Assembly: GCA_963727805.1 (NCBI GenBank) | Contig: CAVSHF010000003.1 | Span: 2,397,327 to 2,461,326 of the forward strand | Length of the DNA stretch: 64,000 nt | Reading direction: 5' to 3' | DNA from: an uncultured Nitrospiraceae bacterium | GTDB lineage: Bacteria; Nitrospirota; Thermodesulfovibrionia; Thermodesulfovibrionales; Dissulfurispiraceae | In this document: piece by piece, positions 22,312 through 62,296 of the stretch | How the letters are laid out: each line of letters starts with the position of its first letter | How positions within the stretch are numbered: the first letter of the stretch is position 1 | The notes under the pieces: model-generated | Database searches by the model: none | Seen by the model: the letters and a program-made list of their open reading frames with translations, nothing else | Told to the model about the DNA's origin: nothing | Position numbers and translations under genes: made by a program

Positions 22312-23715
22312 ATGGACAAGCAAAAGCTTCTATCAGACCTACCCTCCGTTGACGAGATTGTGAAGTCAAAAGATGGTATCGAGTGGCAGCAGAAATTTCC
22401 ACGAGTCTATGTTGTCCGGGCGATCCGTGAAATAATCCAGCGGCAGCGTGACGCCATTCTCGATGGCAGGTTTGAAGAAGCAGGTATTGATGACCTTCTG
22501 CCTGAGATCGAGAGGCAGATTGAAAAGCTGTCACGGTGCAGCCTAACCCCGCTTATCAATGCTACCGGGATCGTGATACATACGAACCTGGGAAGATCGA
22601 TCCTATCCGATGCGGTCCTCGAACAGGCAACCAAAATCGCCGGAGGCTATTCAAACCTCGAATATGATCTCAAGAAGGGCGAGAGGGGCAAGCGATACTC
22701 CCATGTCCAGAGGCTGCTTAAGGAACTCACCGGCGCGGAGGCCGGCATTGTCGTCAACAATAATGCCGCTGCCGTCTTCGTGTGTCTGACCGCTCTTGCC
22801 CGAGGCCGGGAGGTCATAGTTTCGCGGGGAGAGTTGGTCGAGATCGGAGGTTCATTCAGGATACCGGATGTGATGGCGAGCAGTGGTGCCATACTAAACG
22901 AAGTGGGAACTACTAACAAAACGCATGGCTATGATTACGAAAATGCACTAAACGATAATACGGCGCTTATGCTTAAAGTACACCAGGCTAATTTTAGGAT
23001 GATAGGCTTTACCGAGGCGCTGTCCATTGGGGAGCTAGTTGCCATCGGCAAGAAATATAGCGTGCCCGTTATGTATGACCTCGGGAGCGGCTGTTTCGTC
23101 GATCTTAAGCCCTATGGCATTCATATCGAGCCGACTGTTCAGGAAATCGTAAAAGCCGACGCCGACATCGTTACCTTTAGCGGAGATAAACTTCTGGGTG
23201 GACCGCAGGCAGGCGTTATCGTTGGTAAGAGGAAACTAATTGATATAATAGCAAAAAATCCACTTATGCGTGCAGTCAGGGTCGATAAGATGACGCTCGC
23301 TGCCCTTGAAGTGACCCTCAGGTGCTATCTTGATCAAGAGACAGCAATTGAGAAGATACCTACCCTGTCGATGCTGCTCCAGGCTCCGGAAAAAATCATG
23401 GAACGGGCTAAGAAGATCTTGAAATTACTCAAACGAGGACTGAGCGCAGACGACGGCGCTACGGTGGAGATTGATGTGGTCGAGGATCTATCGCAGTCAG
23501 GTGGTGGTGCATTGGCCGAGGTGCCGTTCAAAACCTATGCGATTTCGATTATGCCGTCGAAATTGTCCGTTAATGCACTCGAAGACAGGTTGAGGCATGG
23601 GAATCCTCCTGTGATTGCGCGGATAAAGGATGATGCCCTTATACTCGATGCCCGCACCGTGCGAAACGAAGAGATCAAGATGCTAGTGAACGCGGTTAGG
23701 GCGGCCCTGATTTAG
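22312..23715 (+). CDS. selA: L-seryl-tRNA(Sec) selenium transferase
   Basis: INATGIVIHTNLGRS, VNNNAAAV, RGELVEIGGSFRIPDVM, FSGDKLLGGPQAG. Confidence 0.97.
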   Translation: MDKQKLLSDLPSVDEIVKSKDGIEWQQKFPRVYVVRAIREIIQRQRDAILDGRFEEAGIDDLLPEIERQIEKLSRCSLTPLINATGIVIHTNLGRSILSDAVLEQATKIAGGYSNLEYDLKKGERGKRYSHVQRLLKELTGAEAGIVVNNNAAAVFVCLTALARGREVIVSRGELVEIGGSFRIPDVMASSGAILNEVGTTNKTHGYDYENALNDNTALMLKVHQANFRMIGFTEALSIGELVAIGKKYSVPVMYDLGSGCFVDLKPYGIHIEPTVQEIVKADADIVTFSGDKLLGGPQAGVIVGKRKLIDIIAKNPLMRAVRVDKMTLAALEVTLRCYLDQETAIEKIPTLSMLLQAPEKIMERAKKILKLLKRGLSADDGATVEIDVVEDLSQSGGGALAEVPFKTYAISIMPSKLSVNALEDRLRHGNPPVIARIKDDALILDARTVRNEEIKMLVNAVRAALI

Positions 23716-55560: not shown

Positions 55561-56157
55561 TCAAAGTCGAGTAACTAGTTTCCCGAGCACTCTTTCGTAA
55601 TCTTCTCTGGTATCTATATCGATTATGACGCCTTCGTCTATAACCTCGACCGTTCTAACCCTTTCAGGATTTCTGTTGACAAGATCTTTTAACGTGCCTC
55701 CTTTGAAGATCTCATCGACAACATGCCTGGGGAAGAGAGTCGGATGACCGCGTTTTCCCTTATATGCGGGGATGATAATCTTGGCTGGGGCCTCGTAGTG
55801 CAGCCTGAGCAGGTTTTTTAATGTCTCCTCAGAAATCAGCGGATGATCGGAAAGGCTGACAAGGATACCGGATGTAAAAGGATTAACGGCTCTAAGGCCA
55901 ATTCTCACCGAGTTCGCCATTTCGCTGCCGAGGTCTTCGTTAAAAACAGCTTTTACCGGTAGTCCCTGCAGTGTCTTCAACAATTTCTCGCTGTTGCGTC
56001 CGAGGACTACGACAATCTCATCAATGTCCGTAGCGATAATGCTGTCGATGCAATGCCTGATGAGCGGTTTGCCGTCAAGAGGAAGAAGCTGTTTCGACTG
56101 CCCCATTCTTCTCGATGATCCCGCTGCAAGAAGAATGGCCGATACTGCTAAATGCAT
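55561..56157 (-). CDS. mocA: Molybdenum cofactor cytidylyltransferase-like protein
   Basis: LAAGSSRRMG..KQLL, DHP, GHPTLF, DIDT; next to xdhC. Confidence 0.8.
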   Translation of the reverse strand: MHLAVSAILLAAGSSRRMGQSKQLLPLDGKPLIRHCIDSIIATDIDEIVVVLGRNSEKLLKTLQGLPVKAVFNEDLGSEMANSVRIGLRAVNPFTSGILVSLSDHPLISEETLKNLLRLHYEAPAKIIIPAYKGKRGHPTLFPRHVVDEIFKGGTLKDLVNRNPERVRTVEVIDEGVIIDIDTREDYERVLGKLVTRL

Positions 56158-56914
56158 CTTTCCTCCTCTGTTCGATGATCTGCGCCATGATACTTATTGC
56201 GATCTCCCCGGGCGTTACAGAACCTATCGGGAGTCCGACGGGAGTGATAATCCTGCCGATATCATCATCCGTAAATCCAGCATCCTTAAGAAAACGAAAA
56301 AGGACTGCCATTTTGCGCTTGCTTCCAACGAGGCCCACATATCTTGCCTTAGTCGACAATGCCGCCTTGACGGCGTCGAGGTCGTGATTGTGCCCCCTTG
56401 TGGCGATAACGATATACGAATTGCGGTCGATCCTGATTCCTGAAAAGGCCTCGCCGAATTCAGCCACGACTACATTGTCTGCATGCGGAAGATTCTCCTT
56501 GTTTGAGAACTCTGCCCTGTCATCCACCACCGTGACGCGGAAACCTGAGATACTTGCAACCTGGGAGAGTGCCTTTCCTACGTGCCCCGCGCCGAGGATT
56601 GCAAGATGCGGTTCGGGGATTATCGGTTCGATAAAGACAAAGACTTTCCCTCCGCACACAAGCCCGCCATGTTTCTCAGTAAGATTGAAGGGGACAGTTT
56701 TAGGAAAGCCCTCTTTAATGGCAAGCGAGGCAAGCTCAATCACTTCCGCCTCGATGCATCCACCTCCAAGTGTCCCAGTGATTAAGCCGTCGTCCCGAAT
56801 GAGCATCTTCGCCCCTTCCTTTTGCGGCGAAGAGCCGATTGACTGTACAATAGTGGCGAGGGCACATGGTCTGCCCTCTTTTTTGAGCCTCACGATTTCC
56901 TCGTAGACGTCCAT
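56075..56914 (-). CDS. xdhC: XdhC/CoxI molybdoenzyme maturation factor
   Basis: GTLGGGCIE, GLVCGG, GAGHVG, YVGLVGSKRK, PVGL..TPGEIAISI. Confidence 0.88.
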   Translation of the reverse strand: MDVYEEIVRLKKEGRPCALATIVQSIGSSPQKEGAKMLIRDDGLITGTLGGGCIEAEVIELASLAIKEGFPKTVPFNLTEKHGGLVCGGKVFVFIEPIIPEPHLAILGAGHVGKALSQVASISGFRVTVVDDRAEFSNKENLPHADNVVVAEFGEAFSGIRIDRNSYIVIATRGHNHDLDAVKAALSTKARYVGLVGSKRKMAVLFRFLKDAGFTDDDIGRIITPVGLPIGSVTPGEIAISIMAQIIEQRRKDAFSSIGHSSCSGIIEKNGAVETASSS

Positions 56915-56917
56915 TGG

Positions 56918-59098
56918 CTAATCCGCTTTCAAGTCTCCGGCTCGGATCGGCAGCCGCCGTATGCGTTTGTCTGTTGCCGCAAATATCGCATTACCCACGG
57001 CTGGAGCGATAGGCGGTACTCCGGGTTCACCCACTCCGCCAGGTGGCTCTGTATTCGACACTATAAAGACATCGACGATAGGCATTTCGTTCAAGCGCAG
57101 TACGGGGTAGTCGTGGAAATTGCTCTGCTCGACACGACCGTTCTTCAATGTAATCTCACCATGTAGCGCAGCGGAAAGCCCAAATACAATCCCTGATTCC
57201 ATCTGCGCCCTTATGGTGTCGGGATTTACGATCTTGCCGCAATCGATGGCGCATACTACTTTATGCACCCGGACAGTTCCATCTGGTTTTACAGACACTT
57301 CGGCAACATGCGAAATGAAGCTGCCGAAGGACTCATGGACCGCTATACCCCGGGCACGTCCCGCTTTCAATGGTTCGCTCCAATCTGACTTTTCAGCAGC
57401 GAGTTTCAATACACCAAGATGGCGCGGATGATTTTTGAGGAGTGTAAGACGGTATTCGTACGGATCTTTGCCGGCGGCGTGCGCAAGCTCATCGATGAAA
57501 CTTTCAACGACAAAAGCCGTGTGAGAGTGGCCGACAGAGCGCCACCACTGCACCGGCACTCCTATTCTCGGACTGTGTAAGTCAACATGGATATTCGGGA
57601 TTGCATAAGGAATATCCTGCGCGCCTTCCACAGAGGTCTGGTCGACACCTTCCTTTATCATGCGGGTGAAGGGTGTTCCCTCTAAAATCGATTGGCCGAC
57701 GATTGTATGGCGCCAGGCAACGGGATTCCCCTCTTTATCCAGCCCAGCGGCGATACGGTCATACCACATTGGACGATAATATCCTCCCCCGGTATCGTCC
57801 TCTCGTGTCCAGATAACCTTGATTGGCTGCTTTACACCGACTGTTCGTGCCGCTTTTGCGACATGTGCTGCCTCCGAAACGAAGTCCGTTTGAGGATTTG
57901 CCTTGCGACCAAAACCGCCCCCTAGATAGGTGGTATGAAGTTTCACTTGCTCCGGCTTGAGGTCTAATATGCGCGCGGCAGAGTTGCGGTCGGCTGTCTG
58001 GAACTGCGTGCCAGTCCAGATTTCGCAGCTGTCGCTCCGATAGTCAACAAGGCAGCTCAGGGTTTCCATGGTTGCATGTGCGAGATAGGGGACAGTGTAT
58101 TCGGCGCTGATCTGTTTTGCCGCCTGCTTTAGCGCATGATCGGCATCTCCCTCCTTACGGGCAACTGCCCCCGGAGTTTTAGCGAGAGCTGCATACTCTT
58201 CAAGTTGCTTCTGGGTGTCGAATGTGGCAAGTGGGCCTTCGTCCCATATGATTTCGAGGGCGTCGCGGCCCCGATGTGCAGACCAGCAGTCATCGGCGAT
58301 AACGGAGACCCCTGAATTGATCTGAGCCACCGCCGTGACACCTGCCATCGCCTTTGCCTTGTCCGCGTTGAAGGTTTTCACCTTTCCGCCAAAGACAGGA
58401 GGGCGTGCAACCAGTGCGATGAGCATTCCCGGGACCTTTACATCAATACTAAAGACAGCCTTTCCGTTCACCTTGTCGGGAGTATCGAGGCGCTTTATGG
58501 GTTTGCCAAGAAACTTATCATATGAAGGCTTTTTCAGGGGAATATCGCTGGGAGCTTCAAGAGTGGCAGCCTTCTCTGCCAATTCTCCATATGAAAGGCG
58601 TTGCCCCGCCGGGCCTAGCACGATACTGTTCTCTGCCCGACAATTGTTGGGACTGACCTTCCATATGTCCGCTGCCGCGGCGATTAACATCATTCGCGCT
58701 GCGGCCCCCGCCTTGCTTAGGCGCTCCCACTCACTCCTGATGCTTGTGCTTCCGCCGGTCCCTTGCAAAGTCCCCCATTGAGCATGGTTGTACGCTGGGT
58801 CAACTGGAGCAGGCTCGACACGAATCTTCGACCAGTCGACTTCGAGTTCCTCTGCGACGAGCATCGGAAGGGATGTGTACACCCCTTGTCCCATCTCCGA
58901 CTTGTTGACGACGATCGTTACAGAGTTGTCCGTGCTGATGCGGATGAAGGCATTTGGGGCGAAGGAAGCTGACTTCTCGGATGCTTCAACTGGGGATTTG
59001 CAGGGATCAAGAGAGAAGCCGAGAACCAATCCCCCCCCGATAAGGGCCCCAGTCTTGAGAAAGTCGCGGCGGCTTATGTTAATGATGTTGTTCATCAT
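56918..59098 (-). CDS. Xanthine-oxidase-family molybdopterin subunit (IorB/aldehyde dehydrogenase type)
   Basis: [37 protein letters not shown]. Confidence 0.9.
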
Positions 59099-59571
59099 TT
59101 ACCTCCTTCCGCGATCACGTTGGTCGCCATAGTGCCAGAGGCGCGATGTATCGCGCGCCTGATTCGCTGATATGTGCCACAACGGCATATGTTACCTGAT
59201 AGGGCATTGTCGATATCAACGTCGCTCGGTGCAGGATTATCTTTGAGCAAGGCCACCGCTGACATGATCTGCCCCGGGTGGCAATATCCGCACTGAGGAA
59301 CGTCATCTTCGATCCAGGCTTTTTTGACGGGATGAGTTTCGGGGATGCCTTCTATCGTGGTGATTTTCTTGCCCTGAGCTGCGTTCACAGGGACCTGGCA
59401 GGAGCGCTCGGGCTTCCCATCGATATGAACGGTACATGCGCCACACTGCGCGATACCACATCCATACTTCGTTCCGATAAGTCCAAGATGCTCCCTGATC
59501 ACCCAGAGCAGGGGCATATCGGAGCTCACATCCACTTCATACTTCTTGCCGTTCACATTGAGAGAGATCAT
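59095..59571 (-). CDS. 2Fe-2S subunit (IorA-type)
   Basis: [27 protein letters not shown]. Confidence 0.92.
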
Positions 59572-59704: not shown

Positions 59705-59734
59705 TGTATTCAGGATGGCTGTATTCAGGATGGC
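59705..59734. repeat. 15-bp tandem duplication
   Basis: TGTATTCAGGATGGC x2. Confidence 0.85.
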
Positions 59735-59770
59735 TTGACATGAATATTAAAGTATCATAATATTATGATA
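59735..59770 (+). promoter_or_regulatory. arsR operon promoter with overlapping palindromic operator
   Basis: TTGACA-17-TAATAT; perfect 18-bp palindrome TATCATAATATTATGATA at 59753-59770. Confidence 0.65.
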
Positions 59771-59791
59771 TAAAAATCTTTAGGATGGATT

Positions 59792-60133
59792 ATGAGATCA
59801 TATGGCAGACAGGCGGATATTTTACGGGTAATCGCTCATCCGGTGAGGATCAGGATATTAGGTGAGCTCATCAAAGGGGTTAAATGTGTAAGCGACATCG
59901 AGAAATTTCTTGAGCTGCCGCAGTCAAATGTATCACAGCACCTATCCCTCCTGCGAAACACCGGCATGATCGACTATTACACGGACGGCAGGCTTAGGTG
60001 TTATTACCTCAGGGACCCCATAGTCCCTGACATTTTGAATGTATTGAGCAAAGAATACAGTGAGGAGCTTCCGGCTCCAGCATGTTGTCCGGTAACAAAG
60101 AAAGGCACTTATCCAGGAAGGAGCCCGCAATGA
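59792..60133 (+). CDS. ArsR/SmtB family transcriptional regulator
   Basis: AHPVRIRIL, KCVSDI, QSNVSQHLSLLR; C-terminal PACCP. Confidence 0.9.
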   Translation: MRSYGRQADILRVIAHPVRIRILGELIKGVKCVSDIEKFLELPQSNVSQHLSLLRNTGMIDYYTDGRLRCYYLRDPIVPDILNVLSKEYSEELPAPACCPVTKKGTYPGRSPQ

Positions 60134-60480
60134 AGATCAACAAAGAAATTACTATGTTTTTTACCACCACACCTTACAGCTCTGAAAACACCCATACTAT
60201 TATCAAGTTTGCCGACGCAGCGCTGAGGAAAGGCCACAAGGTGCGCCTTATTGCATCGGGAGACGGCGTCTTTTCCGTAGTGAAAGGGCAGGTCCCCGCC
60301 GCCTTCTCAGCCCTTGAAGACCTGGTAAGTAGAGGGCTTAAAGTGGATATATGAACAGGCTGCATGCAAGCCCGCGGTCTTGCGGGTGAGGATTCGGTTG
60401 AGGGGGGAGAAATGAGCTCACTGAAAGGGCTTTTCAACACAATCAAGACACGCCCGATTTTCTTGAGTGTTGGCTCGTAA
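60130..60480 (+). CDS. DsrE/TusD-like protein, probable selenoprotein (U75)
   Basis: TTPYSSE, GDGV; in-frame TGA 60352-60354 in VDI-U-TGCMQARG; frame continues 41 codons to TAA 60480. Confidence 0.82.
60371..60386 (+). promoter_or_regulatory. Putative bacterial SECIS hairpin
   Basis: CCCGCG-GTCT-TGCGGG, stem starting 16 nt after the UGA, loop begins with GU. Confidence 0.65.
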
Positions 60481-60490
60481 CGAGGACGAG

Positions 60491-60844
60491 ATGGGAATCA
60501 TAAGCATCCTATTGAGGAAAAGTCCTTACGGTACCGTTGATGCGGCAGAGGCAGTACGGCATGCGCTGGGCGGGATTACCGAAGATATGGAAACGCATCT
60601 TGTGCTGGTTGATGGAGGAGTCAATGCAGCAAGAAGAGGGCAGGATCTCGTCTCTACTGGATATGCGAGCATCGAGGAAGGCATAAGGGATTGTATCGAT
60701 ATGGGCATTACTGTCTCTGTCGACAAAGAATCAGTGACGGTGTCCGGCATGGAGCCGCAAGACCTCGTCGAGGGCGTGAACATTCTGAGCGGTCCCGAAA
60801 TAGTCGGACTAATACAAAAAGCCGATACAACCATGATATTTTAA
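60491..60844 (+). CDS. DsrF/TusC-like protein
   Basis: LLRKSPYGT..AAEAVR, VDGGV, VDKES, KADTTMIF. Confidence 0.75.
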   Translation: MGIISILLRKSPYGTVDAAEAVRHALGGITEDMETHLVLVDGGVNAARRGQDLVSTGYASIEEGIRDCIDMGITVSVDKESVTVSGMEPQDLVEGVNILSGPEIVGLIQKADTTMIF

Positions 60845-60854
60845 TGGAGGAGAA

Positions 60855-61136
60855 ATGCTCGTACTTGTCAAGAGCGGTCCGGACACTGCGGAAGGGAACC
60901 GCGGTATTAGTATGGCGAGGGAGATGACTGCCGACTTGGTCCTGATTCAAAATGGCGTCTATTTTGCTATCGCAGAGAGACTTGAAGGGTTCCCGGGGAC
61001 CATCTATATTCTCGATGAGGACAGCAAACTGAGGGGACTCAGGGATGAAGCACTCAGAAAGGATGCTAGCAAGCTTGATTATGACGGGCTGGTTGATGCC
61101 ATAACCGAAGAGGATAAAGTCGTTGGTATGTTTTGA
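60855..61136 (+). CDS. DsrH/TusB-like protein
   Basis: LIQNGVY, LDEDSKLRGL, LDYDGLVD. Confidence 0.8.
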   Translation: MLVLVKSGPDTAEGNRGISMAREMTADLVLIQNGVYFAIAERLEGFPGTIYILDEDSKLRGLRDEALRKDASKLDYDGLVDAITEEDKVVGMF

Positions 61137-61153
61137 ACGATCGGGGGGGGGGA

Positions 61154-62296
61154 ATGGTAAAGCCTATCTATCTTGATTACAACGCAACGACACCGCATGA
61201 TCCTGAAGTGATTGCAGCCATGAAGCCGTACCTGGAAGAACACTTCGGAAATCCATCGAGCTTGCATTGGTATGGTCAAAAAACGAGAGGGGCGGTCGAA
61301 ACCGCGCGTGCGCAAGTCGCGTTCCTTGTCGGGTGTGAGCCTGAAGAAATCATTTTTACAAGCGGCGGTACCGAATCCAACAATCATGCGATAATGGGCA
61401 CCACCGCCGCGCTCAGAGCTAAAGGCAATCATATCATAACATCCCAAATCGAGCACCCTGCCGTGATCGAAGTATGCAAATTTCTTGAGATGCAGGGGAT
61501 TGAGGTGACTTATCTTCCCGTTGACGAATACGGGCTTGTTGATATCGTGAGTGTTGAGAAGGCCATTACGCCGAAGACGATTCTGATTACGGTAATGCAC
61601 GCCAATAATGAAGTCGGAACGATCCAGCACATAGAAGAAATTGGCACGTTAGCTCGCAAGAAGGGGATTGTCTTGCATACCGATGCCGCTCAATCCGCAG
61701 GCAAGATTTGCGTTGATGTCAATGCCTTAGGCGTCGACCTTCTCTCTATTGCGGGGCATAAGCTGTATGCCCCAAAAGGTATCGGTGCCCTTTACATTCG
61801 CCGTGGCCTCGAACTTGGAAAATTCATGCACGGCGCTGGACAGGAAAGCGGGAAAAGGGCAGGGACCGAAAACGTCCTTGAAATCGTCGGACTCGGAACA
61901 GCCTGCGAAATCGCCGCACGTGATCTCAACCTGAACATACCGCACTTTCGGGAAACAAGAGATCAGCTCTACGATGGGCTCAAGCAAAAAGTGAAAGACA
62001 TCAGACTGAATGGGCATCCTGAGCTCCGACTACCGAATACCCTGAGTGTCTGCTTCAGGGGGATTGAAGCACAGGACCTCCTTTCTGCCATTCAGGATCG
62101 CGTCGCTGCATCGGCGGGCGCGGCATGCCATTCGGGAGAGTGCAGACTATCGTCCGTGCTTACTGCAATGCGTGTGCCGGAGGAATGGGGCCGTGGGACG
62201 CTCAGACTATCAACAGGCAAGATGACGACAAGCTCAGAAATTGAAAAGGCGCTCGCCGTCATCTCGAATGCAGCCTTGCAAATCGTTAAAGGTTGA
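61154..62296 (+). CDS. Group I cysteine desulfurase / selenocysteine lyase-like PLP enzyme
   Basis: YLDYNATTP, GNPSS, TSGGTE, ANNEVG, HTDAAQ, GHKLYAPKG, SAGAACHS. Confidence 0.9.
   Translation: MVKPIYLDYNATTPHDPEVIAAMKPYLEEHFGNPSSLHWYGQKTRGAVETARAQVAFLVGCEPEEIIFTSGGTESNNHAIMGTTAALRAKGNHIITSQIEHPAVIEVCKFLEMQGIEVTYLPVDEYGLVDIVSVEKAITPKTILITVMHANNEVGTIQHIEEIGTLARKKGIVLHTDAAQSAGKICVDVNALGVDLLSIAGHKLYAPKGIGALYIRRGLELGKFMHGAGQESGKRAGTENVLEIVGLGTACEIAARDLNLNIPHFRETRDQLYDGLKQKVKDIRLNGHPELRLPNTLSVCFRGIEAQDLLSAIQDRVAASAGAACHSGECRLSSVLTAMRVPEEWGRGTLRLSTGKMTTSSEIEKALAVISNAALQIVKG

Follow-up and report, generated by a model that had tools for sequence, protein, structure and literature searches.

A predicted DsrE-like selenoprotein in a DsrEFH-like operon of Nitrospirota

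Background

In the DsrEFH complex of Allochromatium vinosum, Cys78 of DsrE is described as the only DsrEFH residue that binds sulfur; it carries a persulfide and hands the sulfur on to DsrC, and Cys20 of DsrH is required in vivo (PMC3397948, in the excerpts covered here). A 'DsrE-like protein' (PF02635, with a UxxC motif) has also been listed as a predicted prokaryotic selenoprotein family since 2005, in PMC1088965 (2005), PMC1794560 (2006) and a 2026 review (PMC13188914). Excerpts of these three sources list two Sargasso Sea sequences and one in Desulfovibrio vulgaris and describe the function as uncharacterised. The first-pass annotation of the DNA studied here had stated that DsrE-like selenoproteins were predicted before, and these listings bear it out. 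Here we analyse a locus at which such a gene, dsrE(U), lies in an operon of the order arsR - dsrE(U) - dsrF - dsrH - nifS, a setting that the first-pass annotation had missed.

Results and discussion

A dsrE gene with a conserved in-frame UGA

The window, that is, the whole stretch of 64,000 nucleotides that was analysed, belongs to a genome of 3.9 Mb in 5 contigs (100% complete). The gene (60130..60480, plus strand) starts at the ATG at 60130, and its translation under table 11 stops at the TGA at 60352-60354. With this TGA read as selenocysteine (U), the frame encodes 116 amino acids with the motif U75-T-G-C78, ends at the TAA at 60478-60480 and leaves a gap of 10 nt before the next ATG (60491), which confirms the earlier proposal that the frame runs past the TGA to a DsrE of normal length. 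We classify it as a predicted DsrE-like selenoprotein gene based on its match to PF02635 (51.9 bits against a cut-off of 22.7), a phylum-wide alignment and a match in fold. The predicted selenocysteine codon (60352..60354, plus strand) falls at the position of DsrE-Cys78 among the aligned homologs.

The UGA is widely conserved. All 27 best matches to dsrE(U) among 41 related genomes carry a single TGA, and in the phylum as a whole matches at E 1e-12 or better occur in 87/301 genomes. Of 95 such matches, 90 carry one TGA, one is a fragment that starts after the TGA, and the four that have no stop show TGC or TGT at the UGA position; since the genomes compared are related, these locus counts overstate independence. 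A set of 126 distant representatives includes 101 that are full length at this site, and 92 of those have Cys in the UGA column and none has Trp. Position 75 is thus occupied by TGA or Cys in the way expected of a selenoprotein. Conservation does not end at the TGA, as about 40 further residues are conserved up to the true stop, and the presence of TGA at the same site in many other genomes excludes an assembly error. In addition, the UGA codon is spanned by a metagenome contig whose sequence is identical to that of the window; the codon lies near the end of that contig, and the source sample of the contig is possibly the same. Two RNA runs yielded contigs of relatives only, none of them 99% alike to this locus. 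Most of the named related loci are from Nitrospirota, and the nearest in the tree belong to Dissulfurispiraceae.

Of the 120 database homologs listed, 118 have as their last residue the one that precedes the UGA, which indicates that the dsrE(U) gene is routinely cut short in annotation. The isoleucine codon that precedes the UGA (60349-60351) is also biased: it is ATA in 45/62 loci, compared with 40/188 of the other upstream isoleucine codons of the same genes, perhaps an effect of decoding context.

The genome contains selA, selB, tRNA-Sec (selC) and two selD genes, all over cut-off, so that the components whose presence the first-pass annotation had asked to see confirmed (selB, selC and selD) are in place. 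The selA gene that it had placed in the window was found at 22333..23700 (plus strand; TIGR00474, 608 bits against a cut-off of 268), outside the dsrE(U) operon and 37 kb from it. Both selD genes contain an in-frame TGA. The genomes of two Cys-form orthologs retain selB and a match to selA (partial in one), and loss of the machinery therefore does not account for the cysteine in those orthologs. Taken with the alignment of TGA and Cys, the conserved tail and the selected hairpin described below, the machinery supports the prediction of a U75-x-x-C78 selenoprotein, against which none of the refuting conditions named in the first-pass annotation held, and we consider insertion of selenocysteine at this UGA almost certain from the comparative evidence.

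Other selenoprotein candidates with SECIS-like hairpins occur in the same genome, on contig C3 near 1552120 (+), 2177468 (+), 1354203 (-) and 1808335 (-), and on C5 near 158390 (-). We take their families to be DsbG/DsbA-like (UPYC and UPHC), HdrA-like (CAMU) and SelD, and a further candidate, whose N-terminal nickel motif reads RICGVU, presumably resembles the large subunit of NiFe hydrogenases. One selD is immediately preceded by two open reading frames (L004:2521-3668) that resemble what we assume to be an insertion-sequence transposase pair.

A SECIS hairpin under selection

The putative upper stem-loop of a bacterial SECIS element (60370..60387, plus strand), identified by comparison across genomes, contains the GC-rich hairpin CCCGCG-GTCT-TGCGGG at 60371-60386. 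It begins 16 nt past the UGA and has a 4-nt loop with G first (60377) and then U, as the first-pass annotation had described it. Rules published for such elements specify a loop of 3-9 nt, a stem of 4-16 bp, a G in the first two loop positions, a spacing of 16-37 nt and an energy of at most -7.5 (PMC13188914, excerpts). A scripted version of these rules is passed here, with loop 4, stem 7, spacing 22 and -10.7 kcal/mol.

Taken alone, the hairpin is unremarkable. Its stability does not differ significantly from that of shuffled sequences (z -1.27 to +0.13 in four folds), and the scripted rules are also passed by 52/1951 TGA, 59/1859 TAA and 36/1228 TAG stops of the genome, or about 3%. The case for a SECIS element therefore rests on the comparison across genomes, which is strong. 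The rules are passed by 52/75 distinct UGA loci and by 0/10 Cys loci, and the four core stem pairs are intact in 71/75 of the former and 0/10 of the latter, two true orthologs included. In 39 distinct close homologs, the codons at +7 to +10 after the UGA, which make up the stem and loop, are nearly frozen (CGC 39/39, GGT 37/39, CTT 36/39 and GCG 37/38), compared with 28-77% for the commonest codon at twelve 4- to 6-fold control sites in the 20 upstream codons; codon +2 is likewise biased (GGC, 34/39). The stem recurs, flanked by other pairs, in a second clade at 40-50% identity. In a set of 44 sequences the stem cells are paired in 92.4% of cases (34-50% in slid controls) and the covariation of the stem is 0.396 against 0.157 when shuffled, both scores being inflated by the relatedness of the sequences. 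Within the close clade alone, one stem pair is altered on both sides in 13/33 rows. We conclude from these patterns that the hairpin is under selection.

Organization of the operon

The operon is preceded by a sigma-70-like promoter (TTGACA-17/18-TAATAT/AATATT; 59735..59770, plus strand), a candidate by consensus match only, which overlaps a perfect palindrome at 59753-59770 that is a possible ArsR operator. Just upstream of this promoter-like site lies an exact 15-nt tandem duplication (59705-59734), with a third, partial copy at 59779-59791. The first gene encodes an ArsR/SmtB-family repressor of 113 aa (59792..60133, plus strand; PF01022 and NF033788 over cut-off), and its stop overlaps the start of dsrE(U) in the sequence ATGA. 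An arsR gene is found upstream of dsrE(U) in 49/66 loci. The repressor falls below the cut-offs of the BigR persulfide-sensing model NF040642 (39.9 vs 155) and of the TsoR model (30.5 vs 115).

Downstream of dsrE(U) are a DsrF/TusC-like gene of 117 aa (60491..60844, plus strand; PF02635 over cut-off, TIGR03010 below at 23.1 vs 94.15) and a DsrH/TusB-like gene of 93 aa (60855..61136, plus strand; PF04077 over cut-off, TIGR03011 below at 40.7 vs 49.2). Both are nearly constant companions of the Sec gene: dsrF and dsrH each follow it in 67 of the 68 UGA loci with enough DNA for the count. DsrE(U) scores 22 against the 89.25 of TIGR03012, so that all three subunits are under the curated TusD/C/B cut-offs. 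The DsrH of this operon has no Cys, and no invariant Cys column was found among 65 DsrH homologs. A DsrC/TusE-type acceptor was not found in the dsrE(U) operon. The two Cys-form orthologs keep dsrE-F-H together with an SQR-like gene, which suggests that the module works with plain cysteine.

Most Thermodesulfovibrionia have been described, by DRAM annotation, as having dsrFH but no dsrE (PMC11033732, excerpts). Truncation at the UGA may contribute to this remark, and divergence from the marker models could explain it too. We do not accept truncation as the sole cause, as the read-through protein (22 bits) and a full-length Cys paralog (19.8) both miss TIGR03012.

A divergent cluster of xanthine-dehydrogenase type occupies 55561-59571 (-), with a 2Fe-2S subunit recognized by Pfam; we assume that it also encodes a molybdopterin subunit and XdhC-like and MocA-like proteins. 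At four related loci (L128, L129, L130 and L131) the operon extends past sqr with a second ArsR, a small DsrE-like protein and an MMPL/RND transporter, and presumably with rhodanese-, YeeE- or TauE-like genes. One of them (L128) additionally has an Fe-S oxidoreductase gene with an in-frame TGA, plus nifS-selD.

A possible carrier of sulfane sulfur

In the family profile, U75 is aligned with Cys78 of A. vinosum DsrE (2HY5 chain A), and the U-x-x-C motif with the CxxC of YchN; of the two, YchN is the closer match to the profile (E 3.5e-12, against E 6.6e-5 for DsrE). The predicted structure of DsrE(U) (mean pLDDT 84) superposes on MTH1491 and on YchN, DsrEFH and TusBCD chains with Z 15.6-17.1 (YchN 16.5, DsrEFH chain C 16.5, TusBCD chain A 15.6) and an rmsd of 1.4-1.9 over 101-112 residues. 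A single-protein phmmer search against solved structures was discarded in favour of the alignment search, since its top five hits, designed PPR repeats, are an artefact. The Tso selenoprotein models of NCBIfam gave no match to DsrE(U) at E up to 0.01.

Our preferred reading, held with a little more belief than doubt, is that the operon encodes, under the control of a repressor, a carrier of sulfane sulfur that resembles DsrEFH. Selenocysteine would be inserted at position 75 in a SelB-dependent manner, and DsrE(U), DsrF and DsrH would assemble into a DsrEFH-like complex, a step that we consider probable in its own right. The persulfide-forming enzyme of the operon would then load sulfane sulfur onto U75, C78 would aid its release or hand-over, and ArsR would repress at the palindrome over the promoter. 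The position of U75 at Cys78, the match in fold and the constancy of dsrF and dsrH count for the carrier; the sub-cut-off subunits, the profile closer to YchN, the Cys-less DsrH and the lack of an acceptor in the operon count against it, as does the absence of either type of fifth gene from 20/66 loci.

The fifth gene and selenium as an alternative cargo

The fifth gene of the operon (61154..62296, plus strand) encodes a group I NifS-like PLP enzyme with the motif GAACH, of a subfamily that is fused to SelD elsewhere. In most relatives this slot is filled by SQR, with counts of 40/66 loci for SQR, 6/66 for NifS and 20/66 for neither, and one additional NifS locus lies beyond these six. Both enzyme types form protein persulfides and would suit the role of sulfur donor to the carrier. 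A run of 10 G (61143-61152) immediately precedes the nifS start codon.

The SQR that was tested is of type I by comparison with solved enzymes (E 1e-97) and has both Cys of the catalytic motif; an assignment to type III, from a weak NCBIfam match, was rejected because the solved structures show type I. No SQR match was found in this genome, nor in any of the 7 NifS-type genomes that include it, with a positive control in two others (G012 and G015). SQR was equally not found in two genomes that have no fifth gene, and one locus (L046) carries both SQR and NifS. In the closed genome G015, an sqr behind the trio appears broken (G015:C1:751942-752295; a partial match with one TGA). This type of NifS meets the trio in three arrangements, namely after dsrH, after sqr (L046) and divergently upstream (L070 and L098). 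In a tree of the joined DsrE-F-H proteins (61 rows, quick method), the 6 NifS loci require 2 changes within one weakly supported subtree, which suggests one or a few swaps of the fifth gene.

The kind of NifS found here favours selenium as the cargo in this lineage and gives rise to the main rival of the sulfur-carrier reading. According to this rival, which we regard as unlikely, NifS is a selenocysteine lyase from which the Sec-DsrE trio receives selenium, to be passed on to SelD for recycling or protected delivery. The best 120 relatives of this NifS in the length range of 665-2000 residues are without exception NifS-SelD fusions (62-68% identity), in a search that could return long proteins and fusions only; the three other NifS paralogs of the genome have a median identity of 44-48% to the same set, and the GAACH motif is common to 116/120 of the fusions. 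In one relative (G025) a related nifS adjoins selD at the far end of a cluster opened by the Sec-dsrE operon, about 9 kb away. The genome studied here has two SelD, and a DsrE-domain protein, YedF, has been tied to SelD (PMC5322559, excerpts). Against the relay, the usual partner of the trio is the sulfide-oxidising SQR (40/66 loci), and neither selD of the genome studied here lies near the dsrE(U) operon. Furthermore, the NifS scores 139 bits against the cut-off of 525 of the Sec-lyase model SclA (NF040779), and among solved structures cysteine desulfurases (E 1e-101 to 1e-97) match it better than Sec lyases do (E 1e-68).

The link between NifS and the trio may be partly positional, since in three genomes of the same genus (L110, L111 and L113) NifS faces xanthine-dehydrogenase-type genes with no trio in between. 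The enzyme could serve in molybdenum-cofactor sulfuration, for which XdhC-NifS offers a precedent. The query used for YqeB, which marks selenium-dependent molybdenum hydroxylases, gave no match in the genome, and this likewise weighs against the relay.

A bolder combination of the two cargoes, which we think improbable, is that a selenium-tipped, DsrEFH-type carrier is a modular chalcogen shuttle of sulfate-reducing Nitrospirota, coupled to SQR in most lineages and rewired here to a SelD-type NifS as a selenium relay (Sec lyase to DsrE-U75 to SelD). If true, this would be a selenoprotein-based selenium relay that has no description in the literature searched.

Oxidoreductase, Dsr pathway and genuine stop

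A reading that we hold quite unlikely is that DsrE(U), instead of carrying sulfur, acts as a YchN-type UxxC oxidoreductase for the reduction of persulfides, polysulfides or a metalloid, and that the operon is a detoxification unit for sulfide or arsenite-like stress. U-x-x-C is found in all aligned Sec members, with C78 invariant in 38/38 rows, and YchN is the best solved match of the profile. ArsR has four conserved Cys (Cys32, Cys70, Cys98 and Cys99, each in 51/52 homologs), of which Cys98-Cys99 form a vicinal pair, and ArsR with type I SQR has been tied to arsenic resistance in Synechocystis (PMC4307280, excerpts). The constant dsrF and dsrH partners, however, suggest a DsrEFH-like complex, and the motif itself cannot separate a carrier from a reductase because a second trio of this genome, which has cysteine in place of selenocysteine, also has CxxC in its DsrE.

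Located on another contig, this second set (dsrH-dsrE(Cys)-dsrF-tusA) is separated from dsrC by about 6 kb and from dsrA by about 12 kb. It bears on the proposal that the Sec trio is the organism's Dsr-pathway DsrEFH and donates sulfur to DsrC, which we consider very unlikely. Both dsrA and dsrC are present in the genome, on a contig other than that of the Sec trio, and carriers can act in trans. The genes beside the Cys trio, however, are presumably of dsrMKJOP type, and in another genome (G210) such a Cys trio lies inside the dsr cluster. The Cys trio, rather than the Sec trio, would thus be the better candidate for the Dsr pathway. At one related locus (L132:2463-2840, G011:C42) the second motif position of a DsrE paralog on the dsr side is an in-frame TGA (C-E-A-TGA); the frame beyond it is open and conserved, and there is a GC-rich hairpin. 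This variant is known from one genome only and is possibly a CxxU form or a nonsense change.

That the UGA is a real stop, in a truncated protein, pseudogene or assembly error, is hardly credible: the hairpin by itself is not unusually stable, but the UGA and the tail of about 40 residues are conserved, the stem is frozen and covaries, and it is lost in the Cys forms.

Comparison with known systems

The dsrE(U) gene is systematically mis-called, and a module of 87/301 sampled genomes of the phylum is therefore invisible in annotations. The Sec and Cys forms offer a natural pair of putative DsrEFH-like carriers, together with two natural donor enzymes, and could be used to study the effect of selenium at a sulfur-carrying residue and the separation of sulfur and selenium traffic in cells.

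The selenoprotein shares with the predicted DsrE-like family its PF02635 domain, the UxxC motif, a single Sec and an in-frame SECIS element; the entries of that family, in the excerpts cited above, give no DsrF/DsrH, SQR, NifS or Nitrospirota context. With DsrEFH of A. vinosum (2HY5) and TusBCD of Escherichia coli (2D1P) the operon has in common three adjacent genes of E, F and H type, the fold and a reactive residue at the Cys78 position. It differs from them in having Sec for Cys with a second Cys three residues on, in subunits below the equivalog cut-offs, in a Cys-less DsrH and in being unlinked to dsrC/tusE, headed by ArsR and associated with SQR or NifS. The Sec trio may be DsrEFH/TusBCD-like in its working, yet these differences argue against classing it as one. 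E. coli YchN (1JX7), deposited as a hypothetical protein, is the best profile match, with CxxC aligned over UxxC, whereas the protein studied here belongs to a three-subunit set.

The NifS of the operon is 62-68% identical to the NifS half of NifS-SelD fusions and shares their GAACH motif, but it is a free-standing protein encoded after a DsrEFH-like trio, and SelD is encoded at other places in the genome. Synechocystis suoR-suoS combines an ArsR with a type I SQR, as do most relatives of this operon; excerpts of its description mention no DsrEFH or selenoprotein (PMC4307280), and the present genome has no SQR match. A term search of the available text of PMC5812927, PMC13326102 and PMC5029168 returned no passage on DsrE, and no description of a Sec-DsrEFH operon was found in the literature searched. 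The selenoprotein appears to belong to an already predicted family, and its DsrEFH-like operon appears to be undescribed in print within that literature. The particular contribution of this locus is the NifS variant, the less common form of the operon, in which the NifS is of the SelD-associated type.
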